DNA of 64,000 nucleotides from Chloroflexota bacterium (GTDB lineage Bacteria; Chloroflexota; UBA11872; VXNJ01). The stretch lies in assembly GCA_965208775.1 (NCBI GenBank), contig OZ242360.1:126085-190084 (forward strand). Reading direction: 5' to 3'. Below the pieces are notes generated by a model. That model was not told the origin of the DNA and ran no database searches. It was given only the letters and a program-made list of their open reading frames with translations. The translations under genes and the position numbers were made by a program. Within the stretch, counting starts at the first letter, position 1; every line of letters begins with the position of its first letter. This document shows positions 2,090 to 12,913 of this stretch, piece after piece.

Positions 2090-2941
2090 CTAGCTGGGCG
2101 GAACGCGGACGATATCGAGCGGCGGAATTTCGGAGATGATGCCGTGCCGGCAAGCGCGTGAATAGAGTTCGCGCAGAGCTGCTTCACCGTCAGCGCCCAT
2201 GTCGACGGTCAACTCGTTGACGTACATCTTGGCGAACTTCTCGCCCCGCTCGGCGTCGATGCCGCGACCGAATTCCAGCGCGTAGTCAACCGCGTCCGCG
2301 TTGTTCGCGAAGGCCGCGTCGATGCTGCGGCGAAGCGCCCTGCCCAGAGCAACGTGCCACTCATTGCCCAGGTCACGCCGTACGCAATCCAGCCCCAACG
2401 GGAGCGGGAGTCCGGTCTCGTCATGCCATTTCTCACCCAGGTCCAGGATTTTCGTCAGGCCGGCGTCGACGTAGGTCAACTGCCCCTCGTGTATCACCAC
2501 CGCGGCGTCAAGCTCGCCCGCCGCAACGGGATCCATCACCGTGTCGAACGGGAGCTGAACAGCCTCGACCTCGGGCAGGAAGATCCTGGAGAGCATGAAG
2601 GCGGTCGTGTTCACGCCGGGCATCGCAACTCTCCCGCCCCGCAGGCTTTCGACGGTACGATCGCGGTTCGAGACGACTAACGGTCCGTAGCCGATACCCA
2701 TTGACGCCCCGCACGAGAGGATTCGGTACCTGTCGGCGACTTGCGGATAGACTGCCGCCGAAATGGCAGTCATTTCCAACTCGCCCCGCATTGAACGAGC
2801 GTTCAGGCTTTGAATGTCCTCCAGGACTTCCGAATGTCCCGCCGGTTCAGGCCCATCGATGCTGACGATTCCGTGGGTGATCGCATAGAACATATAGGCA
2901 TCGTCGGCGTCGGGACTGTGCCCAATCTTGATTTGCCGCAT
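2090..2941 (-). CDS. mqnD: 1,4-dihydroxy-6-naphthoate synthase (MqnD, futalosine pathway).
   Basis: The N-terminal IGHSPDADDAYMFYA motif is characteristic of the MqnA/MqnD family. The gene sits in an operon with mqnA and two MqnC/E-type radical SAM genes. Confidence 0.75.
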   Translation of the reverse strand: MRQIKIGHSPDADDAYMFYAITHGIVSIDGPEPAGHSEVLEDIQSLNARSMRGELEMTAISAAVYPQVADRYRILSCGASMGIGYGPLVVSNRDRTVESLRGGRVAMPGVNTTAFMLSRIFLPEVEAVQLPFDTVMDPVAAGELDAAVVIHEGQLTYVDAGLTKILDLGEKWHDETGLPLPLGLDCVRRDLGNEWHVALGRALRRSIDAAFANNADAVDYALEFGRGIDAERGEKFAKMYVNELTVDMGADGEAALRELYSRACRHGIISEIPPLDIVRVPPS

Positions 2942-3010
2942 TAGCGGAAGATCAAAGACGGCGAACCATCGGTGCCAGGTCCACGCAGGGGTAGGGTCGG
3001 CAATGGCCGG

Positions 3011-4126
3011 CTATGCGACAACCGCCGCCGGTTCCCTGTCGAACACGCGCAGCGTTTCGTACTGACTGTTGCGCTGGGCCGGGATGAATCCTGAGTCCCG
3101 GATCATCTGCCGCACCTCTTCGGCAGTTGTCCGGTTATAGTGACCGGCCTCGTTCATGACGTTCTCGTCGAACAAGGTACCGCCGAAATCGTCGGCGCCG
3201 AAATGAAGGGCGACTTGCCCCGTCTTCTTGCCTTCCGAAAACCACGAGGCGTCGACGTGGTCGAAGTTGTCCAGATACAGCCGCGCTACCGCCAGCAGCC
3301 TCAGGTAGCGATTGGGGCCAGCCCGCTTGCCTTTGATCCGACGCCCCAAGGGTGTCTTGCCAGGGCTGAAGCTCCATGGCACGAAAGCATGAAAGCGGCC
3401 TCTGTGGCCTTCATCCTGCAAGTCCCGGATACGGTCAAGATGCTCGATGATGTCGTCATCGTCTTCGACGTGGCCGTACATCATGGTCGCGGTTCCGCAG
3501 AATCCGACCTTGTGGGCGCTCCGCTCGATTTCGATCCACTCATCCGCGTCCATCTTCAGCGGACTGATCTTCTGTCGTACCCGGTTGGTCAGGACTTCCG
3601 CCCCGCCGCCGGGAAGCGTGCGCTGGCCGGCGTCCCAAAGCGCGCCCAGGACCTCCTCGTAACCAAGACCGGACACCTGTTTCATCTCGTATATCTCCGG
3701 CGGCGACCAGAAGTGCGGAGTCACGTCGGGATAGGCTTCCAGGCTGGCGCGCACCATGTCGGTGTAATAGCTGAATGGAAGCTCTGGGTTTAGCCCGCCC
3801 TGCATCAGAACGGTCGTGCAGCCGAGGTCACGCGCCCGGCCTATCGCCTCCACCATCTCGGCGATGGTATGAGTGTAGGCGTCGGACGCAGTGCTGGTGT
3901 GGGGGCGGTAGAAAGCACAGAAGCTGCAATAGGCGTCGCAGAGGTTCGTATAGTTCAGATTCGTATCGACGACATAGGTAACGATAGGCTCCGGGTTGCG
4001 TACAAACCTCACCTCGTTTGCAAGCGCCCCCAACTCGAGCAGGTTGGCTTTTGTCAGAAGGTACAGCCCTTCCGCGGTAGTCAAGCGGTCGCCGGCCAAG
4101 ACCTTTGACCGGATTTCGTCGATCAT
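3011..4126 (-). CDS. mqnC: MqnC/MqnE-family radical SAM enzyme, tentatively cyclic dehypoxanthinyl futalosine synthase (MqnC).
   Basis: It has a CxxxCxxC motif (CDAYCSFCAF) and the MqnC/E-type C-terminal domain, and lies between mqnA and mqnD. The C-versus-E assignment is by position only. Confidence 0.65.
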   Translation of the reverse strand: MIDEIRSKVLAGDRLTTAEGLYLLTKANLLELGALANEVRFVRNPEPIVTYVVDTNLNYTNLCDAYCSFCAFYRPHTSTASDAYTHTIAEMVEAIGRARDLGCTTVLMQGGLNPELPFSYYTDMVRASLEAYPDVTPHFWSPPEIYEMKQVSGLGYEEVLGALWDAGQRTLPGGGAEVLTNRVRQKISPLKMDADEWIEIERSAHKVGFCGTATMMYGHVEDDDDIIEHLDRIRDLQDEGHRGRFHAFVPWSFSPGKTPLGRRIKGKRAGPNRYLRLLAVARLYLDNFDHVDASWFSEGKKTGQVALHFGADDFGGTLFDENVMNEAGHYNRTTAEEVRQMIRDSGFIPAQRNSQYETLRVFDREPAAVVA

Positions 4127-4887
4127 GCGGCGCTGACCTTTCGCTCCAACTCGGAGTCCAGCTCTCTGAATCTACGCAACCCCTCAAGCTCGGCGTCGCC
4201 GAGACGATAGACAAAGTTTCGAATATACGAGCCGGTTTGCTCCAGGCTCAGTCCCGGATCAGTCCTGCGCCGGTGAATAGCGGAAGGGTCCGAAAGGTTG
4301 GAAGTCAGATTCCTGTCGAAGTAACCGGCAACCGTCTCCCTGTCGGCGTCAGAAATGTCACCCGCGGCGTACCAGCGGGCAAACACGAACGGCAGCCCGG
4401 TCGCCTCCTTCCACTCGTCCGCGAGGTCCACGACAACGGGATATTCGTCCGACGGACGCATGTTCCGCAGCGCCTCATCTCCTATCAAAAGGACCGCGTC
4501 GCTGCCGGCGCCTATCGAACCGAATCGTGTCTGCGATTTTGCGCCGTTCCAATGGTCCAGTAAGACCCGAAGCAGACGGACTGAAGTGGCGGTGTCGTCG
4601 ATGATCCCAATCTCACAGCCCGGGAGCTTCCCAACATCGACCCTGGACTTGAGAATCACCGAGCGAGCGGGGCCGAAGCTGGCGATACCGAAGTTGCCGA
4701 TCGGTGCGAACCTGCCGGGATAGTCGAACTCTGCCACCACCGGCAGCGGCGCGATGTCGACCTCGCGCCGCACGGCCAGCGACAACATCTCTCGCGGCGA
4801 GGCAACCGACGAATTGGCGCGCACCTCATCATCGTCAAAGAAGGGTTCGGTGTTGAGATACGGAATGCGACCGATCCTAGGCCGCAT
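4123..4887 (-). CDS. mqnA: Chorismate dehydratase (MqnA).
   Basis: IGRIPYLNTEPFF and FVFARW motifs mark the MqnA family. I placed the start at the internal MRPRIGRIPY methionine, which removes the overlap with the upstream gene. Confidence 0.75.
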   Translation of the reverse strand: MRPRIGRIPYLNTEPFFDDDEVRANSSVASPREMLSLAVRREVDIAPLPVVAEFDYPGRFAPIGNFGIASFGPARSVILKSRVDVGKLPGCEIGIIDDTATSVRLLRVLLDHWNGAKSQTRFGSIGAGSDAVLLIGDEALRNMRPSDEYPVVVDLADEWKEATGLPFVFARWYAAGDISDADRETVAGYFDRNLTSNLSDPSAIHRRRTDPGLSLEQTGSYIRNFVYRLGDAELEGLRRFRELDSELERKVSAA

Positions 4888-6037
4888 AGACCCGCTCCAC
4901 GTTGTAAGTGGCGTCGCGTTCGACTGGAACCTTGCCCGCATCGCGGATCAGATCGATCATCCGGTCCCTGGCGATGCCGAGCGGACTGGCGGCCAGCGCC
5001 GCGTGGGCAATCCGCTCTTCGCCAATGGTGCCGTCCAGATCGTCCGCGCCGAAATTGAGGCCGATTGACGCCGTAGACTCGCCCGTCATGACCCAGTAAG
5101 ACTTGATATGTGGGAAGTTGTCCAGCATCAGTCTCGAGGTCGCCAGAGTTCGAAGATCGTCCATGGGCGTGGCGTGGCGTTCGACCAGCCTTGTCGTTCC
5201 GACCTGGTACTCCAGTGGAATGAAGCAGAGATAGCCGCCGGACTCGTCCTGAGCTTCACGAAGCCGAATTAGATGATCGACACGCTCGGCATGAGTCTCG
5301 ATGTGACCGTAGAGCATGGTGGCGTTCGACTGGATGCCCATCGAGTGCGCCAGAGTGTGAATCTCTATCCAGCGGTCAGCTCCGCACTTGCCCCGAAACA
5401 GCTCTCTGCGAACGCGCTCCGAGAACACCTCCGCGCCGCCGCCCGGCATCGAATGCAAGCCGGCGTCGATCAGCCGTTCGAGAATCTCTTGATCGCTCAG
5501 CTTCCAGCGCTTGTGGAAGTAGTCGATCTCGGCCGCCGTGAACGCCTTGATCTGCACGTTCGGACGCTCTGACTTAATCGTTCGCAGAAGGTCCTCATAC
5601 CACTCGAACCGCCAATCGGGATGATGCCCGCCGACGATATGGACTTCCCGCAGGTCCGGATGGATGCTGTTCAAGATGTCGTCGACCGAGTGCTCGTAGG
5701 CGTGCGAATCTCCCTTCTTGGCCGCAAAATCGCAAAACGAGCAAGACAGTACGCAGATGTTGGTCGGGTTGATGTGCACGTTGAGCACGAAGTAGACGCG
5801 ATCTCCGGAGACGGCCCTGGAAGCGTGATCCGCTATCTGTCCGAGGCCCAGCAAGTCGGGAGTTTGCAGCATCGCAAGCCCGTCTTCGCGGTCGAGACGG
5901 CGGCCCGCCTGGACCTTCTCCCAAATGCGATCAAGCGCGAGGTCCCGAAAGCTCTGTTCCGTGCGCGGTTCCAGATCAAGCATCTTGCGAGACTCCATTG
6001 TTACCAGCGGCGCCGCCCGGTTCGATTTCAGCCCCAA
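4877..6037 (-). CDS. mqnE: MqnC/MqnE-family radical SAM enzyme, tentatively aminofutalosine synthase (MqnE). The true start is probably an internal Met (~5983–5998).
   Basis: It has a CxxxCxxC motif (CVLSCSFCDF) and is paralogous to the 3011..4126 product. A long-start model would overlap the TetR gene by 62 bp. Confidence 0.65.
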   Translation of the reverse strand: MGLKSNRAAPLVTMESRKMLDLEPRTEQSFRDLALDRIWEKVQAGRRLDREDGLAMLQTPDLLGLGQIADHASRAVSGDRVYFVLNVHINPTNICVLSCSFCDFAAKKGDSHAYEHSVDDILNSIHPDLREVHIVGGHHPDWRFEWYEDLLRTIKSERPNVQIKAFTAAEIDYFHKRWKLSDQEILERLIDAGLHSMPGGGAEVFSERVRRELFRGKCGADRWIEIHTLAHSMGIQSNATMLYGHIETHAERVDHLIRLREAQDESGGYLCFIPLEYQVGTTRLVERHATPMDDLRTLATSRLMLDNFPHIKSYWVMTGESTASIGLNFGADDLDGTIGEERIAHAALAASPLGIARDRMIDLIRDAGKVPVERDATYNVERVYAA

Positions 6038-6635
6038 CGCTTCGCAGCAGGGTTACGCGAAGCTCCGGCATCTCCGCTTCGAGAGTTTTCTTGTTGCCGG
6101 TTCGCAGCCATTCGGTCACCACCTCGGCGATCGCCCCGAACCACGCCCGTGACACGAGCCGGCAATTCAAGGGATCGATCGCGCCTTCCGCTATGGCCGC
6201 ATCTAGCTGCGTCTCGATCAAGCGCGCAAATCGGCCGCGCATCACGAGAATCGTATCCTGCAAAGGAGAGTTGCCGGCAGGCAGCTCCACCAATGCGATA
6301 CGCGCCATCCGGCGATGCTTGGCGAACGTTGACAGCACGGTCGTAAGCGCCGCGTCGAGTCGCTCCAAGGCCGTCCGCTTGGGCGATATGGCTTGCTGCA
6401 CCTTGTTTTCGAGACGGTCCGCCAGCCGGACCAGCACGGCCTCGAAGATGTCGCTCTTGCTGGGAAAGTGGAAATACGCCGCGCCCTTGGAGCGGTCGGC
6501 GGCTTCGACGATATCGTCCATCGCCGCGCCGTGATAACCGCGGTCGGCGATTATCTCCTGCGCCGCATCGAGCAACAGCGTGCGCGTTACCTCCGAGCGA
6601 GACTGCCGCCCCTGCGGAGGACCTTTGACAGCCAA
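5976..6635 (-). CDS. TetR-family transcriptional regulator.
   Basis: An N-terminal HTH (TRTLLLDAAQEIIADRGYHGAAMDDIVEAADRSKGAAYFHF) is followed by a C-terminal ligand-binding-type domain. A perfect palindrome lies 21 bp upstream. Confidence 0.8.
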   Translation of the reverse strand: MAVKGPPQGRQSRSEVTRTLLLDAAQEIIADRGYHGAAMDDIVEAADRSKGAAYFHFPSKSDIFEAVLVRLADRLENKVQQAISPKRTALERLDAALTTVLSTFAKHRRMARIALVELPAGNSPLQDTILVMRGRFARLIETQLDAAIAEGAIDPLNCRLVSRAWFGAIAEVVTEWLRTGNKKTLEAEMPELRVTLLRSVGAEIEPGGAAGNNGVSQDA

Positions 6636-6655
6636 TGTCCACCTTCCGAAAAAAT

Positions 6656-6673
6656 ACCGACTGGTCAGTCGGT
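6656..6673. promoter_or_regulatory. Candidate TetR operator: perfect 8-bp inverted repeat ACCGACTG-GT-CAGTCGGT.
   Basis: Read directly from the sequence. It is flanked by A/T runs and sits immediately upstream of the TetR start codon. Confidence 0.5.
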
Positions 6674-6844
6674 TTTTAACCCGCGGCGAACCCGTTTGTC
6701 AAAGGAACTATGTCACCGCCGATACAGCCTTGTACACCCGCCAGCTTCAACTGTTACCGGACACCTCCACCTCCGCACGCATACCGCGCATTCCTTCGAC
6801 AGCGGGAGATCCAGTCGAGCTCGACGCGTCAGCTCTGGTCGAAT

Positions 6845-8266
6845 CTAGCCGAACGGCGCGGGCGGGCGGTGGTGCGCCCAAGGGGCCGCCTGCTCGAAGG
6901 CTGCCGACGCCCGCAATACCGTGTACTCGTCGAACCTGCGCCCCACAATCTGCAATCCCACGGGCCGGCCATCGCTCGTGAAGCCGCACGGTACGCTGGA
7001 GGCGGGCTGTCCCGTCATGTTGAATGGATAGGTGAACGGCGTCCAACCGAAAATCGAGATCTTCTTACCATTCAACGTTTCGGGATTGTCGACTCCTATC
7101 GGAAGAGGCGGGACCGCCACCGTGGGGGTCAGCAAGATGTCGAACTCACTGAGGATTTCCCCCATCCGCTGCGTCAGCCGGCGCCGCACGTGTCCCGCGT
7201 TGGCGCAGTCTATGGCCGACAGTTTGAATCCGGCTTCGACAAATTCCAGATATCCCGGCTCCATGATGTCGCACACGCGGTCAAGATCGTCTTGATGCGC
7301 CGAGGCGAACTTCATGGCGAACAACGTATACCAGGCCGGAGAAGGATCATCGAACGCGACATCGACCTCCTCGAACTTGCTCCCAAGGCTTCCCATATTC
7401 CGCGCCGCGCGCTCTGTGATCTCGGCGACTTCAGCGTCGACCGTCGCAAAGCCGAGAGTCGGACTCCAGCCTATTCGCAGGTCGCCTACGTCGGTCATGC
7501 GCGCAGCATCCTGAAAGCTGGATGGCGGCGGCGGAAGTGTGCTCATGTCCCGTTCGTCGGGACCGGCCATCACGTCGAGCATCAGACCGGCGTCCTCGAC
7601 CGTACGGGTCATGGGACCGGCGTGCGACATCCATTCCAGACCGATATTGACGGGGTACTGCGGCACCCGACCCAGGTTCGGCTTCAGTCCAAAGATTCCG
7701 GAAAAGGACGAAGGAATCCGAATCGAACCGCCGCCGTCGCTGCCAACCGCAAGCGGCCCAAGTCCCGCCGCGACCGCCGCGCCGGCGCCTCCGCTCGATC
7801 CGCCGGGCGAGTGATCGAGACTCCATGGATTGCGCGTCACGCCGAAGACCTGATTGTGAGTGACCCCCATGTGGCCGAACTCGGGCGTATTGGTCTTTCC
7901 CACGACGATCGCACCGGCGCGTTTTAGCCGTGCGACGAGCGGGCCGTCGGCTTCCGGGACGTCGTTTTCGTGGATCCGAGAACCGAACGTGGTCCTGATC
8001 CCCTTGGTCGCGATCAGGTCCTTGATCGTCACCGGCACGCCCCCCAGCGGACCGGGGTCTTGCCCCCTCGCCAGTGTCGCATCGACCGCCTCGGCAGCTT
8101 GCAGCGCGTCGTCCGCCGTCACCGTAACCACCGCGTTAAGTGGGCCGTCTATGGCCTCGATACGGTCGAGCACGGCTCGTGTTACCTCAACGGCGGAAAG
8201 CTCCCTGTTCCGCACGAGGCCTGCGATTCGTGTACCTGGCGTGAAGCAAAGCTCGTCGTTTTTCAC
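6845..8266 (-). CDS. Amidase (amidase-signature family, GatA-like).
   Basis: The 473-aa ORF has the Gly/Ser-rich amidase signature GGSSGGAGAAVAAGLGPLAVGSDGGGSIRIPSSFSGIFGLKP. Confidence 0.8.
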   Translation of the reverse strand: MKNDELCFTPGTRIAGLVRNRELSAVEVTRAVLDRIEAIDGPLNAVVTVTADDALQAAEAVDATLARGQDPGPLGGVPVTIKDLIATKGIRTTFGSRIHENDVPEADGPLVARLKRAGAIVVGKTNTPEFGHMGVTHNQVFGVTRNPWSLDHSPGGSSGGAGAAVAAGLGPLAVGSDGGGSIRIPSSFSGIFGLKPNLGRVPQYPVNIGLEWMSHAGPMTRTVEDAGLMLDVMAGPDERDMSTLPPPPSSFQDAARMTDVGDLRIGWSPTLGFATVDAEVAEITERAARNMGSLGSKFEEVDVAFDDPSPAWYTLFAMKFASAHQDDLDRVCDIMEPGYLEFVEAGFKLSAIDCANAGHVRRRLTQRMGEILSEFDILLTPTVAVPPLPIGVDNPETLNGKKISIFGWTPFTYPFNMTGQPASSVPCGFTSDGRPVGLQIVGRRFDEYTVLRASAAFEQAAPWAHHRPPAPFG

Positions 8267-8383: not shown

Positions 8384-9130
8384 CTAGAACAGACTCTTGA
8401 CGCCGGCCTCCCGGATCATCTCCAGCACGGCCCGCAGGTCCCGCGCGACGCGTGAGCACCGCGGGTCTTCTTTCCTCACCAGAATCGCCGGAATCCCCAC
8501 CCTTTCCGCACCGAGCACATCGGCTTCCGGGTTATCTCCTACCATCCAGGCAACGTCGGGATTGCCGGCAGCTTCCAGCGCGATCTCGAAGGCACGCCGA
8601 TTCGGCTTTTCGAATCCGGTCGCCGCCGAGGTGATGACGACATCGAAGAACCCGGACAAACCGATGCTGTCCACGATCTCCGGCAGCTCGGGCGCATGGT
8701 TCGAGAGAATCACCTGGCGCCATCCATCCGTCCTGAGGGATTCCAGCGATTGAATCGCGTGATCGAACAGTTCCTGCCGTTCCGGGCGCACATACACAGT
8801 TCGCACTTCCCGCGCCAACTCGCGAGTTCTGGCCGGTTGAATGCCAACTTCCTCGTATGCATTCGCGAACAACGGCTCCAGGTTTTCCCACCACGCGTCC
8901 GGGCTCGAAAGCTCCGGGTGGTGCCGCTCAGGTCGATGCCATGGAAATCCGCTTCTAAGAAACGGTCTTAGTTCCTCCCGGTCGATACTGTGGCCTGGAA
9001 GGTATCGATCGAGAACCTCGATCAGCGCCCCCTGCCAGCCCCCCGGATCGTCCGCAAGCGTGCCATGGAAGTCCCAAAACACTGTTTTGTCACCGCGCCG
9101 CGACGGCCTATGCACGGTCACTTTCTGCAT
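8384..9130 (-). CDS. HAD-superfamily hydrolase.
   Basis: It has motif I (WDFHGTL) and a C-terminal MVGDNPEADV-type motif IV. Confidence 0.65.
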   Translation of the reverse strand: MQKVTVHRPSRRGDKTVFWDFHGTLADDPGGWQGALIEVLDRYLPGHSIDREELRPFLRSGFPWHRPERHHPELSSPDAWWENLEPLFANAYEEVGIQPARTRELAREVRTVYVRPERQELFDHAIQSLESLRTDGWRQVILSNHAPELPEIVDSIGLSGFFDVVITSAATGFEKPNRRAFEIALEAAGNPDVAWMVGDNPEADVLGAERVGIPAILVRKEDPRCSRVARDLRAVLEMIREAGVKSLF

Positions 9131-9150
9131 CCCAATAGCGAATTCCTAAA

Positions 9151-9175
9151 GATTGTGGAAATCCAAGTCACAATC
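9151..9175. promoter_or_regulatory. 7-bp perfect inverted repeat GATTGTG-N11-CACAATC in the promoter region of the HAD gene.
   Basis: Seen directly in a locally AT-richer stretch upstream of the minus-strand gene that starts at 9130. Confidence 0.3.
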
Positions 9176-9335
9176 AGTCTCGCGCGGCTTTTTGATGACG
9201 TTAGCTATCTTCCCCGTCTAGTAGACACTGACAGAGATGGACCCTGCTACAAGTCAAACAAACCGAAGTCAACTTTATGTCAAGTAAAACACAGGCCTGC
9301 GTCAGGCGCGTGCGGACGCGGAGGGGCGGCCGTGG

Positions 9336-10595
9336 TCAAATGCCAAGCGCTTCGTCTATATCCCGCTGATACTCGTCCACGCTTCCGGACGCGACCTCGT
9401 CGACCTTCACCTGACGCCCGGCGACCGACGATTCGACAACTGAGTAGGCAACCGCAAGATCGCGCAGTCCGCCTTCTCCGTCGACCTCCGGCTTCCTTTG
9501 CGAATCTTCGATGGCCTGTAGCCAGTCGAGCAGCTCCAATCCGAATGGGTCCTCCATGCCACCGGGAAACCACCGTTCGAGCTGGTCGGGCGAGGCCTCC
9601 GCGCGCATCAGCTCGATGGTGTCGGACTTGTCGCCCAGATCGTCAGTCAATTCAGTGCCGACTATAGATCCCCTGCTTCCATAGATGGCCTTGCCTCCAG
9701 GCACCGCCACCACGTCGCCGTGCGCTCCCCAGGAGAGCGTCAGGCTTCCAATCGCGCCCGACTTGAAGCGGTACGTGATCATCGCAACGTCTTCGAGCTC
9801 GTTCTCGACCGTCCCCTCGAAAGGCGCGTCGTCACGATAGCGGCGAACAGGCTCCGTGGTAGCCGTAACTGCTCCAACCGAGTCGATCTCGCCGCACTGA
9901 TACTCGATCATGTCGAACAGGTGGACGCCGAAGTCGATGCTCGGTCCGCCGCCCGCCCGCTGCTTGACGTGCCGCCAGGCGGTATGCGCGGCTATGTAGT
10001 CGGGCGACCAGTCGGGCGATCCCATGCCGCCCGCCAGAACCGACTGCAATCGTCCGATGCGGCCGTGGCGGATCGCCCAGTGCACGGCCCTGATGGGCGC
10101 CAAGTAACGGATGACTTCGGCGGTCGCCAGCGTGAGGCCGTTCTTGGCGGCCGCATCGACCAGCATCCGCGCCGCCTTGACCGTAATCGCGAGCGGTTTT
10201 TCCATCATGACGTGCCGCCCAGACTCCAGACAGTCGACGCCGATGGTGTGATGTGAATCGAGCGCGGTCAGCACTATCACCGCGTCCACCGAGTCCGAGT
10301 CGAGCATGCGCCGGTAGTCGCTGTATACCTCCGGTCTGCCGGATTGAAGCTCGCTGACGTACACGTGTGGAGCCGACAGCGGGTCGGTCTGGTCGTTAGC
10401 AGTTGGCGGGCGCGGCGGAATGCCGTCGTCGGGCGACCGGAACATCTTCGCGTCGTCGATATTGCGGGAGCAGAGCGCGGTGATCTCGAAATCAGCCAGA
10501 CCCCGCGTTTTGATCTCCCGCAGCCCGCGAAGATGAGCGGGGAGTATGCGTCCGCAGCCAATCACGCCTAGTCGAATCACTCTCGCCTCCTCCAA
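9336..10595 (-). CDS. Gfo/Idh/MocA-family NAD(P)-dependent oxidoreductase.
   Basis: The N-terminal Rossmann motif IRLGVIGCGRI and the family-typical C-terminal α/β domain are present. Confidence 0.8.
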   Translation of the reverse strand: MEEARVIRLGVIGCGRILPAHLRGLREIKTRGLADFEITALCSRNIDDAKMFRSPDDGIPPRPPTANDQTDPLSAPHVYVSELQSGRPEVYSDYRRMLDSDSVDAVIVLTALDSHHTIGVDCLESGRHVMMEKPLAITVKAARMLVDAAAKNGLTLATAEVIRYLAPIRAVHWAIRHGRIGRLQSVLAGGMGSPDWSPDYIAAHTAWRHVKQRAGGGPSIDFGVHLFDMIEYQCGEIDSVGAVTATTEPVRRYRDDAPFEGTVENELEDVAMITYRFKSGAIGSLTLSWGAHGDVVAVPGGKAIYGSRGSIVGTELTDDLGDKSDTIELMRAEASPDQLERWFPGGMEDPFGLELLDWLQAIEDSQRKPEVDGEGGLRDLAVAYSVVESSVAGRQVKVDEVASGSVDEYQRDIDEALGI

Positions 10596-10641: not shown

Positions 10642-11565
10642 TCATACTGGAACAAACTTCTGAATGGCGCGGGAGCCACGGTCATAACCGGCCATCGTTT
10701 CGCAGACCTCGCCAACGTATACGACACCTCTGGAGTCGACCGCTATGCAGTGCGGCCCCATAAACAGCCCCGCGTCGTTTGTTCGCCCCTCGTAGCCGCC
10801 CCAACTCGCCAGCACGTTTCCATCCAAATCCAAGACGCTCGCCCTGTGTCCGCCCTGCGCAAGGAACAGGTTGCCCGCCGAATCGAGCGCCATGTCCTGA
10901 GGCATGTGAATGTCGGTCCAGATATCCAGCACTTCCCCGTCCGAATCGAAGACCTGTATGCGGTGATTCTCGCGGTCAGCCACCAGGATGCGGCCTTGGG
11001 GATCGATGACAAGTGCATGAGGCAGCACGAACTGCCCCGGGCCGCCACCTGGCTCGCCCCACGACGCGACGAGTTCCCCCGAAGCCGTGAACCTGTGCAC
11101 GCGCGCGTTTCCGTAGCCGTCAGTAACCAGCACGTCGCCGTCCGCGGTTACGACAGCGTTGGTCGGCCGGTTGAACGGCGGGCCCGCGCGTTTGATGTTG
11201 AAATAGTCCTTGCCGTCGTGGCCGGTGTCCGAGTAGACGCCCCGTGTTCCGAGCGTCATAAGCAGGTTGCCGTCCACGTCGAACTTGCGGACCGTGTGGT
11301 CCAGATCGCCCGTGCACCAGACCATGTCATCCGAGTCGATGTATATGCCATGCGGCCGAACGAAAAGCCCCTCGCCCCAGGACCTGACAAAGTTGCCGTC
11401 CTTGTCGAACACCATCACGGGATGCGGACCGCGGCTCAGCACGAAGACCCTGTCCTGCGAGTCGACGGCAACACCCGGGACGTCGAGAAACGGCCAGCCG
11501 GTGGGACGCTTGGCCCAATTGTCCACGACCTCGTAACGAAACTCCCCCGACCCGAATACACTCAT
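10642..11565 (-). CDS. NHL-repeat six-bladed β-propeller protein.
   Basis: The ORF contains repeated VxxDxxGNhhV blades (e.g. DVLVTDGYGNARVHRF, RILVADRENHRIQVFD). Confidence 0.65.
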   Translation of the reverse strand: MSVFGSGEFRYEVVDNWAKRPTGWPFLDVPGVAVDSQDRVFVLSRGPHPVMVFDKDGNFVRSWGEGLFVRPHGIYIDSDDMVWCTGDLDHTVRKFDVDGNLLMTLGTRGVYSDTGHDGKDYFNIKRAGPPFNRPTNAVVTADGDVLVTDGYGNARVHRFTASGELVASWGEPGGGPGQFVLPHALVIDPQGRILVADRENHRIQVFDSDGEVLDIWTDIHMPQDMALDSAGNLFLAQGGHRASVLDLDGNVLASWGGYEGRTNDAGLFMGPHCIAVDSRGVVYVGEVCETMAGYDRGSRAIQKFVPV

Positions 11566-11692
11566 AATGCGTCCCGTCCCTCAACGACTTCGCGGTGCCG
11601 TCACATATCGGCTGCGCATATATTGCCTGATTGACGGACTCTATACAGCGTATCGACTCGTCGGACGGTTTCCGTAGTCTGCAGGATGCTCC

Positions 11693-11800: not shown

Positions 11801-12913
11801 ATGCCGGAACTATCCATCGTTAACAGATCGGACAACTGCATGGATGAAATGCCCAAGGAGATTCGTACCGAACGGCTCCTTCTGAGGCCGTTCCGTATGT
11901 CCGATGTTGACGATGTCTTCCAGTACGCTCAGGACCCTGAATGGGCGCGGTATCTCCACGTTCCCCAGCCTTATCTGCGGTCCGACGCCGAGGAGTTCGT
12001 AGCCCTTCAACTGGAAGACCCTTCGTGGGCCATTGTCTACCAAGGACGGATGATTGGCGGGGTTTATCTCCACGACCTGAACCATAAGCACCTGACCTCA
12101 GGGATCGGATACTCGGTTGCCCGCACGCACTGGTCGCGAGGGATCGCAACCGAAGCCGTTTCCGCTGTCGTTGCAGCCGCGTTCGAGCACACGGAACTCC
12201 GACGCATCTGGGCCGCGGCGGATCCCAGGAATGTTGCGTCCCATCGGGTTATGGAAAAAATCGGAATGGTCCGCGAAGGCGTGTTCCGTCAGAATGTGCT
12301 CGTCCGCGGCGAACCGGCGGACACCTCTGTCTACGCCATCCTGCGCGAGGACTGGGAAGCCAGCATGGCCGAGATGCCCAGGGAGACTCGGACTGAACGG
12401 CTCCTGCTACGGCCGTTCCGCACATCCGACGTAGACGATGTCTACGACTACGCTCACGACCCCGAGTGGGGGCGATTTCTCCCGGTGCCCAAGCCCTACC
12501 TGCGCTCCGATGCCGAGGAGTTCGTGGGACGCCAGCTGGCGAAAAAATGGACCGAGGAGCCGGACTGGGCCATGGTGTTCGACGGCAAGGTGATCGGAGG
12601 GGTGAGTCTTCACGACAGGGACCGCGAACGCCGCACGATTGAGCTTGGCTATGCGGTCGCCCGCGCGCACTGGTCTAAGGGGTTTGCCACCGAAGCGGTC
12701 AACGCCGTCATGGGAGCCGCGTTTAGCAACCTGAGACTCGAAACCATCTCGGCACGGGCCGACGTACGGAATATCGCGTCATGGTGCGTAATGGAAAAAG
12801 TCGGCATGACCCGCCAGCGCATCGTGCAAGAGGACGTGCCGTCAGGCGGTCCCCCCGTGGATATGGTCGTCTACGCAATCTCTCGCGAGGAATGGGAGGC
12901 GAAGCAAGCCTGA
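11801..12913 (+). CDS. Fusion of two tandem GNAT (RimJ/RimL-like) N-acetyltransferase domains. The start is probably internal (~11840/11849).
   Basis: Two ~175-aa units, each beginning MP(K/R)E(I/T)RTERLLLRPFR, are ~55% identical. The second unit starts at 12373. Confidence 0.8.
   Translation: MPELSIVNRSDNCMDEMPKEIRTERLLLRPFRMSDVDDVFQYAQDPEWARYLHVPQPYLRSDAEEFVALQLEDPSWAIVYQGRMIGGVYLHDLNHKHLTSGIGYSVARTHWSRGIATEAVSAVVAAAFEHTELRRIWAAADPRNVASHRVMEKIGMVREGVFRQNVLVRGEPADTSVYAILREDWEASMAEMPRETRTERLLLRPFRTSDVDDVYDYAHDPEWGRFLPVPKPYLRSDAEEFVGRQLAKKWTEEPDWAMVFDGKVIGGVSLHDRDRERRTIELGYAVARAHWSKGFATEAVNAVMGAAFSNLRLETISARADVRNIASWCVMEKVGMTRQRIVQEDVPSGGPPVDMVVYAISREEWEAKQA

Follow-up and report, generated by a model that had tools for sequence, protein, structure and literature searches.

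Is the biosynthesis of menaquinone (vitamin K2), normally treated as constitutive, placed under a dedicated transcriptional regulator in some bacteria? The question is raised by a 64,000 nt stretch of DNA (the window) from a Chloroflexota bacterium (GCA_965208775.1, contig OZ242360.1, positions 126,085 to 190,084), where a TetR-type gene heads the futalosine pathway genes on the minus strand. The original prediction was that this TetR controls the mqn operon through a perfect palindrome upstream of its start codon. The genes and the palindrome are present as described, and the palindrome, ACCGACTGGTCAGTCGGT, is unique in the window. The features of the locus are as follows.

6697..6702, minus strand: predicted -35 box TTGACA of the operon promoter
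6673..6678, minus strand: inferred -10-like hexamer TAAAAA, with an 18-nt spacer (alternatively TTAAAA at 6674-6679)
6655..6674, no strand assigned: predicted operator, a 20-bp palindrome, AACCGACTGACCAGTCGGTA in the minus-strand reading, with the perfect core at 6656-6673; it overlaps the -10 hexamer and the expected transcription start
6639..6647, minus strand: ribosome-binding site GGAAGGTGG ahead of the TTG start
5976..6635, minus strand: TetR-family regulator, 219 aa, with a FadR/YsiA-like ligand domain
4877..5983, minus strand: MqnE, aminofutalosine synthase (alternative start ATG 5998)
4123..4887, minus strand: MqnA, chorismate dehydratase (ORF open up to 4941, likely start M19 at 4887)
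3011..4126, minus strand: MqnC, cyclic dehypoxanthinyl futalosine synthase
2090..2941, minus strand: MqnD, 1,4-dihydroxy-6-naphthoate synthase

Gene identities and junctions

The original prediction left open which of the two radical SAM genes is MqnC and which is MqnE. Equivalog profile searches settle the order as TetR-MqnE-MqnA-MqnC-MqnD. The first radical SAM gene is MqnE (TIGR03700, 459.5 bits against a cutoff of 434.55, for 4877-5998) and the second is MqnC (TIGR03699, 431.1 against 428.1). MqnA matches PF02621 with 125.7 bits, and its best PDB matches are SCO4506/7AHR chorismate dehydratase (E = 3.4e-18), aligned from residue 19. MqnD matches PF02621 with 237.9 bits, and in the PDB matches TTHA1568 (2CZL/3A3U; E = 4e-55) and AF1704 (E = 8e-74).

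TetR and MqnE overlap by 8 nt (ATG 5983) or 23 nt (ATG 5998), MqnE and MqnA overlap by 11 nt if MqnA starts at M19, and MqnA and MqnC overlap by 4 nt (ATGA). MqnC and MqnD are separated by 69 nt. The cluster is flanked by an amidase-signature gene (6845-8266) and a Zn-ADH gene (882-1898), and no MqnB-like gene, or other gene for the step that removes the (amino)purine, was found between them, in agreement with the original prediction that MqnB is not in the cluster. A tblastn search of the window with MqnL, MenA-type/UbiA and UbiX queries from related loci detected no late-step genes, although in another locus, L134, these genes are part of the TetR-headed operon.

The TetR protein belongs to the TetR family by its N-terminal helix-turn-helix domain (PF00440, 55.1 bits against a cutoff of 24), and PF17932 and PF08359 are also matched. 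Its sequence is 100% identical to an NCBI Chloroflexi MAG protein. The AF2 model (pLDDT 88.8) displays nine helices, all top Foldseek PDB hits are TetR regulators, and the best fold match is Bacillus FadR, with a target-normalised TM-score of 0.86-0.88.

The palindrome and the promoter

The palindrome ACCGACTG-GT-CAGTCGGT lies at 6656-6673, with 20 nt between it and the TTG start at 6635. It is the only copy in the window at up to 3 mismatches, against 0.07 expected by chance. As originally noted, no other inverted repeat of its kind is found in the intergenic region; it is the only inverted repeat inside 6636-6844, and it extends to 12-nt arms, AAATACCGACTG/CAGTCGGTTTTT. In a PWM scan it scores 30.2 bits, against 18.1 for the best shuffle and 14.1 for the next best site in the window. 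That second site (11651-11670), between an NHL-repeat gene and a GNAT gene, is below the shuffle maximum and was treated as noise.

In a footprint alignment of the window with five related loci (L001-L005; L numbers denote loci used for comparison), TTGACA, the pattern TA.AA and the operator half-sites are invariant while the flanks diverge. The AAGGTG motif of the ribosome-binding site and the start-codon column (TTG, GTG or ATG) are also conserved there. TTGACA sits 19-23 nt before the operator in all 20 loci, the window included, that have an exact TTGACA at this place, and in every clade a -10-like hexamer lies 0-12 nt upstream of the operator, the position expected for a repressor. It should be noted that the -10 hexamer is weak. 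A standard promoter scan reported no site, because the hexamer lacks the final T, and the -10 assignment is an inference.

Conservation of the regulator with menaquinone genes

To determine whether the association extends to other species, TetR homologues were collected by protein similarity alone from one-genome-per-species contigs, giving 80 loci, mostly of Chloroflexota. A tblastn census shows menaquinone genes immediately downstream of the TetR on the same strand in all 75 informative loci; the other 5 have less than 1.2 kb of downstream sequence. Of the 75, 38 carry classical menF-D-H-B-A, 30 carry futalosine mqn genes and 7 carry mqnL. NCBIfam scores above curated cutoffs confirm MenF, MenD, MenH, MenB, MenA, MqnL and MqnC in example loci. 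The median distance from the TetR stop to the next start is -4 nt, in 68 of 74 loci it is 60 nt or less, and the clade of the window conserves an ATG at -8. The overlaps are typically of 4 or 8 nt.

The operator is conserved in sequence, and not only as a hairpin, upstream of TetRs that are only 40-45% identical. The PWM finds one site per locus in 75 of 80 loci, and in 74 of these it is upstream of the TetR. Because the PWM scan is circular, a fixed pattern was used as an independent test. The pattern AACCGAC-N6-GTCGGTT at up to 1 mismatch gives 60 hits in 20.5 kb of TetR-upstream sequence (56 of 80 loci), and 0 hits in the other 1.006 Mb of the same loci. The one site found by the PWM away from a TetR is in the locus L041, where the TetR lies 5 kb away and the only site is between TTGACA-N17-TAGTCT and the mqnE start. 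Thus the operator follows the mqn genes, not the regulator gene. However the motif class is not exclusive to this family. An exact-pattern scan of metagenomes also found it upstream of ilvC, paaA and other TetR genes, and the motif alone therefore does not identify the binding protein.

In some lineages the TetR is fused to MenF. Eight or nine divergent 50%-identity representatives are TetR::MenF fusion proteins, and three of their contigs show one continuous called ORF, with the operator 37-55 nt upstream and MenD downstream.

The recognition helix (SKGxxYFHFPSK) and many residues of the ligand domain are at least 90% conserved across men-linked and mqn-linked members, and only 4 alignment columns discriminate the two groups. 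No column has more than 17% Cys among 81 family members, which argues against thiol-based quinone sensing of the QsrR/YodB type. The NJ tree has no support values.

A proposed regulatory model

The interpretation that the TetR controls the mqn genes is supported by the comparative evidence, and more strongly than was originally proposed. The locus is best explained, with good though not complete confidence, as an autoregulated operon, tetR-mqnE-mqnA-mqnC-mqnD, that makes the naphthoate head group of menaquinone by the futalosine route. In this view a sigma-70-type promoter (TTGACA-N18-TAAAAA) drives the operon, the TetR dimer would bind the 20-bp palindrome and block RNA polymerase, so that both the regulator and the enzymes would be repressed, and an effector bound in the FadR-like hydrophobic C-terminal domain would change DNA affinity. 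The gene identities, the conservation and position of the operator, the synteny, the codon overlaps and the fold (as modeled) rest on the computations presented here, whereas DNA binding itself and its modulation by a ligand, repression rather than activation, and the identity and sign of the effector are inferred.

The original prediction suggested a pathway intermediate or a redox quinone as the ligand. A futalosine-specific intermediate is an unlikely effector, as the same regulator family, with the same operator and a conserved ligand domain, also heads classical men operons and mqnL late-step operons. The effector is most likely a molecule common to all these operons, and candidates are a prenylated quinone or quinol, polyprenyl diphosphate, or a general lipid signal such as acyl-CoA. 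A classic TetR released by the end product would give positive feedback, which would be odd for homeostasis, so that either a demand signal or a co-repressor mode has to be assumed.

Alternative explanations

A less likely but possible variant is that the architecture is as above but the effector is ordinary long-chain acyl-CoA, as in Bacillus FadR, so that the TetR would couple quinone synthesis to membrane-lipid status rather than sense the menaquinone pathway. FadR is the best NCBIfam hit, TetR_C_4/YsiA-like domains are present, the closest solved structures are FadR with acyl-CoA and FasR with C20-CoA, and acyl-CoA would meet the requirement for an effector that does not depend on the pathway. 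However the FadR equivalog (NF053878) score is 81.2 against a cutoff of 200, identity is about 26%, no fatty-acid genes are linked in any of the 75 informative loci, and the fusions to MenF point to an intimate link with the pathway itself. The protein was therefore not filed as FadR. Activation, as by mycobacterial FasR, with release by an end product to give negative feedback, would have a sensible homeostatic logic, and FasR is among the closest structural relatives. It is nevertheless improbable, as the operator overlaps or directly follows the -10 hexamer and covers the expected start site in every clade, while activator sites normally lie upstream of the -35 box.

Two further readings are very unlikely. 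The palindrome lies downstream of the amidase stop codon and matches a loose terminator pattern on the minus strand, with 7 pairs followed by ATTTTTT, and could be an intrinsic, possibly bidirectional, terminator. However the terminator scan found 4 such sites against 3.5 expected, the fold z-score is -0.22, and the site sits 170 nt beyond the amidase stop, directly after a conserved promoter. The sequence, not only the pairing, is conserved in loci with unrelated upstream genes, and the T-run is replaced by GTCGGTCGG, TTGTT and similar strings elsewhere. The terminator reading was rejected. An incidental adjacency, with the TetR controlling only itself or unrelated genes and the mqn genes constitutive, should also be considered, since TetR genes are very common neighbors of many kinds of genes and the evidence here is comparative, without expression data. 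Against this are the linkage to menaquinone genes in all 75 informative loci across three non-homologous gene sets, the codon overlaps, the position of the operator in L041 and the TetR::MenF fusions.

Comparison with characterized regulators

The closest sequence and fold matches are Bacillus subtilis/B. halodurans FadR (YsiA; PDB 1VI0, 3WHB, 3WHC with stearoyl-CoA, 5GP9) and Mycobacterium tuberculosis FasR (6O6N/6O6O). With FadR are shared the YsiA-type C-terminal domain with a long hydrophobic ligand tunnel and, by inference, repression through palindromic operators, but FadR controls fatty-acid degradation and is induced by acyl-CoA, while this family is linked only to menaquinone biosynthesis genes. 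FasR is a TetR regulator of a biosynthetic operon with a long-chain ligand, but is an activator that binds upstream of the promoter, and here the operator lies at the -10/+1 region.

Thermus thermophilus PaaR (TTHA0973) has the same architecture, the TetR being the promoter-proximal gene of the paa operon it represses, with a palindromic operator (PMC6651687). In metagenomes, paaA promoters carry the same motif class, AATTAACCGACCGATCGGTCGGTTAATT, and neighboring TetRs share an SKGGLYHHF recognition helix. However PaaR controls a catabolic pathway and responds to phenylacetyl-CoA, the Thermus consensus is CNAACGNNCGTTNG, and there are no paa genes here.

DesT (Pseudomonas) and FabR (E. coli) are TetR repressors of lipid biosynthesis whose DNA binding is strengthened or weakened by lipid products, and they are the precedent for a co-repressor mode. 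Their targets (desCB, fabAB) and ligands are different, and the relationship shown to them is no closer than the family level. The quinone-responsive repressors MhqR (PMC6798810, PMC12893000) and QsrR/YodB have MarR-type folds and control detoxification genes, not quinone synthesis. QsrR and YodB sense through a thiol, and MhqR is reported to bind the quinone directly (PMC12893000).

Feedback inhibition of MenD by 1,4-dihydroxy-2-naphthoate in M. tuberculosis and S. aureus is the best-established control of flux through the menaquinone pathway, but it is allosteric, specific to the classical pathway and involves no transcription factor. Pathway-specific control is not known to have been described other than at the enzyme level. 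Literature searches for a TetR regulator of men or mqn genes found nothing relevant, which fits the view of a constitutive pathway, although absence from the literature searched is not proof.

Significance

The TetR family is an established one, and what appears to be new is a subfamily, found mostly in Chloroflexota, that is dedicated to menaquinone biosynthesis whichever pathway the organism uses; it is a strong candidate for a menaquinone regulator. A more far-reaching possibility, for now doubtful, is that the TetR directly senses the prenylated naphthoquinone pool, i.e., menaquinone, demethylmenaquinone or their redox state. It would then be the first dedicated product-sensing transcription factor for respiratory-quinone homeostasis, would work identically on two evolutionarily unrelated biosynthetic routes, and in some lineages would be fused to isochorismate synthase as a bifunctional enzyme-repressor.

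The operator, the promoter geometry and the protein are all defined from sequence, and a cultured carrier exists (Thermalbibacter longus). The system could provide a quinone-responsive or isoprenoid-responsive biosensor for vitamin K2 engineering, and the regulator and its operator could help flag menaquinone gene clusters in Chloroflexota metagenome-assembled genomes. Menaquinone is the main respiratory and photosynthetic quinone of many bacteria, and its synthesis is an antibiotic target. A regulator and operator that mark menaquinone operons regardless of the biosynthetic route, with the regulator sometimes fused to MenF, give a concrete handle on how cells set the size of their quinone pool.

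The TetR-headed gene cluster and its palindrome

The 64 kb window has about 60% G+C. On its minus strand, five genes lie between an amidase-signature gene (6845-8266) and a Zn-dependent alcohol dehydrogenase gene (882-1898), as follows.

5976-6635, minus strand: TetR regulator, TTG start; Pfam finds PF00440 together with the C-terminal domains TetR_C_24 and TetR_C_4/YsiA-like
4877-5983, minus strand: MqnE; TIGR03700 scores 459.5 bits against a cutoff of 434.55
4123-4887, minus strand: MqnA; matches PF02621, and its best solved relatives are the chorismate dehydratases SCO4506/7AHR
3011-4126, minus strand: MqnC; TIGR03699 scores 431.1 against a cutoff of 428.1
2090-2941, minus strand: MqnD; matches TTHA1568 (3A3U) at E = 4e-55

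The TetR protein is 100% identical to an NCBI entry labelled as a Chloroflexi MAG. The two equivalog models resolve which of the two radical SAM genes is MqnE and which is MqnC, a point that the original prediction had left open. A 69-nt gap (2942-3010) separates MqnC from MqnD and contains a weak terminator-like hairpin (2970-2957). In the region downstream of MqnD (1899-2089), an 89-aa ORF (1918-2187) with no family hit overlaps the end of MqnD. The alcohol dehydrogenase gene follows on the same strand, and it is syntenic in the related loci L001-L003.

The palindrome ACCGACTGGTCAGTCGGT is at 6656-6673, 20 nt before the TTG start. It is unique in the window at up to 3 mismatches, against 0.07 copies expected by chance. 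It is also the only inverted repeat in the 209-nt intergenic region, and it extends to 12-nt arms with one mismatch. The observation of a TetR gene heading mqn genes behind a palindrome is confirmed.

Conservation of the palindrome in related loci

The palindrome also fits a loose hairpin-plus-T-run terminator pattern, and related loci were therefore examined for conservation. Fifty-two TetR homologues were aligned, and 80 loci were then fetched from a collection holding one genome per species, with the TetR protein alone as the criterion. The labels are Chloroflexota lineages in 74 of the 80 loci; the rest are labelled Rokubacteria, Rubrobacter, two “Deltaproteobacteria” MAGs and two oddly labelled MAGs. 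Two of the loci, L007 and L008, are contigs of one Ktedonobacterales MAG (CAYYCB01) that carry nearly identical TetR genes and putative operators, and these may be strain variants or a duplication.

A variant of AACCGAC-N6-GTCGGTT lies upstream of the TetR gene in nearly all loci, including those whose TetRs are only 40-45% identical to the window protein. As a non-circular test, this fixed pattern was searched at up to 1 mismatch. It gave 60 hits in the 20.5 kb of TetR-upstream sequence, covering 56 of 80 loci, and none in the remaining 1.006 Mb of the same loci. A scan with a symmetrised PWM finds exactly one site above the shuffle maximum per locus in 75 of 80 loci, and in 74 of them it lies 20-233 nt before the TetR match; the exception is locus L041, described below. 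In the window the site scores 30.2 bits, against 14.1 for the next best. This second site, TATCGACTCGTCGGACGGTT, at 11651-11670, is below the shuffle maximum and lies in the intergenic region between an NHL-repeat gene (10642-11565, minus strand) and a tandem-GNAT acetyltransferase gene (11801-12913, plus strand). It is probably due to chance.

The T-run that follows the palindrome in the window is not conserved in other clades, and the RNA fold of the region is no better than that of shuffled sequence (z = -0.22). A terminator would conserve pairing rather than sequence, and the terminator reading is therefore rejected.

Promoter geometry

The upstream regions of the window and its five nearest relatives were aligned. 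TTGACA, a TA.AA hexamer 17-18 nt downstream of it, and the half-sites of the putative operator are invariant, whereas the surrounding sequence diverges. In every clade a -10-like hexamer sits 0-12 nt upstream of the operator. In the window clade the arrangement is TTGACA-N17/18-TAAAAA, overlapping the operator; in the Ktedonobacterales type it is TTGACG-N17-TACAAT; and the men-linked clade has an extended -10, TGnTAnnAT. The operator therefore covers the expected transcription start, and this is a repressor position.

Locus L041 (Rokubacteria) provides a natural control, as the TetR there is detached by 5 kb. The only operator in this locus lies between TTGACA-N17-TAGTCT and the mqnE start codon. 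Thus the site follows the mqn genes and not the regulator gene.

Linkage to menaquinone genes

A tblastn census was made with Mqn proteins from the window and Men/Mqn proteins from the loci, and was backed up by NCBIfam checks above curated cutoffs. In 38 loci the TetR is directly followed, on the same strand, by genes of the classical pathway, typically menF-menD-menH-menB-menA; one of these is from the cultured Thermalbibacter longus CFH 74404 (L040). In 30 loci it is followed by futalosine genes, either mqnE-A-C-D, as in the window, or mqnA-variant radical SAM-mqnC, although one of these loci, L019, rests only on a weak hit at 24% identity. In 7 loci it is followed by the late-step decarboxylase gene mqnL (TIGR03701). 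The remaining 5 loci end within 1.2 kb of the TetR and are uninformative. Thus all 75 informative loci link the TetR to menaquinone genes. The TetR stop codon and the next start codon typically overlap: the median distance is -4 nt, the window clade conserves an ATG at -8, and 68 of 74 loci have a distance of 60 nt or less. This fits co-transcription and translational coupling.

The downstream genes show several variations. Operons of the Ktedonobacterales/Chloroflexia type (L006:9581-10903 and equivalents in L010, L011, L013, L014, L018, L026, L027 and L036) read TetR-MqnA-variant radical SAM (NF045502, 440 aa, no Pfam hit)-MqnC. No MqnE follows in the operon, and MqnD was seen only in L018, about 5 kb upstream on the opposite strand. 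The variant radical SAM enzyme may replace MqnE. In the loci L051 (8603-14237), L052, L054, L055, L065, L009 and L031, labelled mostly Dehalococcoidia and otherwise only Chloroflexota, the TetR heads mqnL (a UbiD-type decarboxylase), an unknown 338-aa gene and an NMT1-type ABC importer, and in L034 (1130-4770) it heads the ABC importer plus MenA. This suggests regulated uptake and prenylation of a naphthoate precursor (salvage) rather than de novo synthesis. Metagenome contigs (L134:5210-7367, L168 and L085) carry a complete TetR-headed futalosine operon, which in L134 comprises UbiA/MqnP-like, UbiX, MqnL, MqnE, MqnA, MqnC and MqnD genes. By comparison, the window operon has only the four early-step genes, and tblastn with MqnL, MenA-type/UbiA and UbiX queries from related loci found no late-step genes anywhere in its 64 kb.

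Fusions of the TetR with MenF

An exhaustive phmmer search against 1.84 billion representative proteins found 45 representatives at E <= 1e-30. Eight or nine of the top hits are mutually divergent proteins of 659-690 aa that carry TetR_N, TetR_C_24 and Chorismate_bind domains, i.e., fusions of this TetR with the isochorismate synthase MenF, in divergent metagenome lineages (representatives P0110, P0113, P0115, P0117, P0122, P0125, P0127 and P0133, and the partial P0248). Three of their contigs were examined and each shows a single called ORF (L201:5819-7858, L202:6958-9027 and L203:7001-9073). In each, the putative operator (24-27 bits) lies 37-55 nt upstream, directly after a -10-like hexamer, and MenD follows the fused gene. 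The fusions may be bifunctional enzyme-repressors. They represent independent “Rosetta stone” evidence that the regulator works with the pathway.

The predicted protein structure and candidate effectors

The AF2 model of the window TetR is confident, with pLDDT 88.8 and nine helices. Sequence-profile and fold searches both place Bacillus FadR/YsiA closest, with matches to 1VI0, 3WHB, 3WHC (with stearoyl-CoA) and 5GP9 at a target-normalised TM-score of 0.86-0.88 and about 26% identity; FasR is also close. However the protein scores 81 bits against the FadR equivalog cutoff of 200, and in the loci examined it is never next to fatty-acid genes. It is thus not assigned as a FadR.

Among 81 family members, the recognition helix SKGxxYFHFPSK is invariant. 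Many residues of the putative ligand domain are at least 90% conserved, including F104, H107, R108, F136, W165, E171, W176, L192 and R193, and only 4 columns distinguish men-linked from mqn-linked members. Of these conserved residues, H107, R108, W165, E171 and W176 are predicted pocket residues. No cysteine is conserved. In an NJ tree without support values, men-linked and mqn-linked members interleave in places.

From these data it is inferred that the effector is probably the same whichever pathway follows. A futalosine-specific or OSB/DHNA-CoA-specific intermediate is therefore unlikely, as is the sensing of quinone adducts through a thiol. Of the remaining candidates, a prenylated quinone or quinol is tentatively placed first, acyl-CoA is possible but less likely, and a polyprenyl diphosphate acting as a demand signal is more doubtful still; something else, or no effector at all, should also be considered. 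A product-sensing repressor would need a co-repressor mode, as in DesT and FabR. The gene assignments, the conservation and position of the motif, the gene linkage and codon overlaps, and the similarity of the predicted fold are results of the sequence and model comparisons, whereas binding of the TetR to the palindrome, its modulation by a ligand and repression are inferred, and the identity and sign of the effector are no more than conjecture.

Specificity of the motif

Metagenome contigs were scanned with the exact pattern AACCGACYGRYCRGTCGGT, and 120 loci (L081-L200) were returned. Only 20 of these have this TetR adjacent, again with men or mqn genes. In the others, highly palindromic versions of the motif, for example AATTAACCGACCGATCGGTCGGTTAATT, sit before the ketol-acid reductoisomerase gene ilvC (27 loci; e.g., L108:8906-8924 before ilvC at 9001-10068), before paaA (9 loci; e.g., L115:2441-2460 before paaA at 2504-3541), before PfkB kinase and PPK2 genes, and before other TetR genes. 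The association with ilvC has no obvious explanation. These other TetRs share an almost identical recognition helix, SKGGLYHHFxSK. The motif class therefore belongs to a wider group of TetR regulators that includes PaaR-like ones. This supports the pairing of helix and half-site, but it also means that the motif alone does not identify the regulator.

Relation to known regulators

Mechanistically, the inferred system is a standard TetR local repressor placed at the head of its own operon, as with Thermus PaaR (PMC6651687). NCBIfam release 20 has no specific model for the family, and full-text literature searches found no TetR regulator of men or mqn genes, although an earlier prediction outside the literature searched cannot be excluded. 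One paper reports only stage-dependent mqn expression in Streptomyces (PMC9927152).

The interpretation offered in the original prediction, that a dedicated TetR controls the mqn genes, is supported by these comparisons. What appears to be new is the target and its breadth: one regulator-operator pair is dedicated to menaquinone biosynthesis across two non-homologous pathways and a late-step or salvage module, and the regulator also occurs fused to MenF. The finding is of above-average interest because it makes transcriptional control of the quinone pool directly testable.
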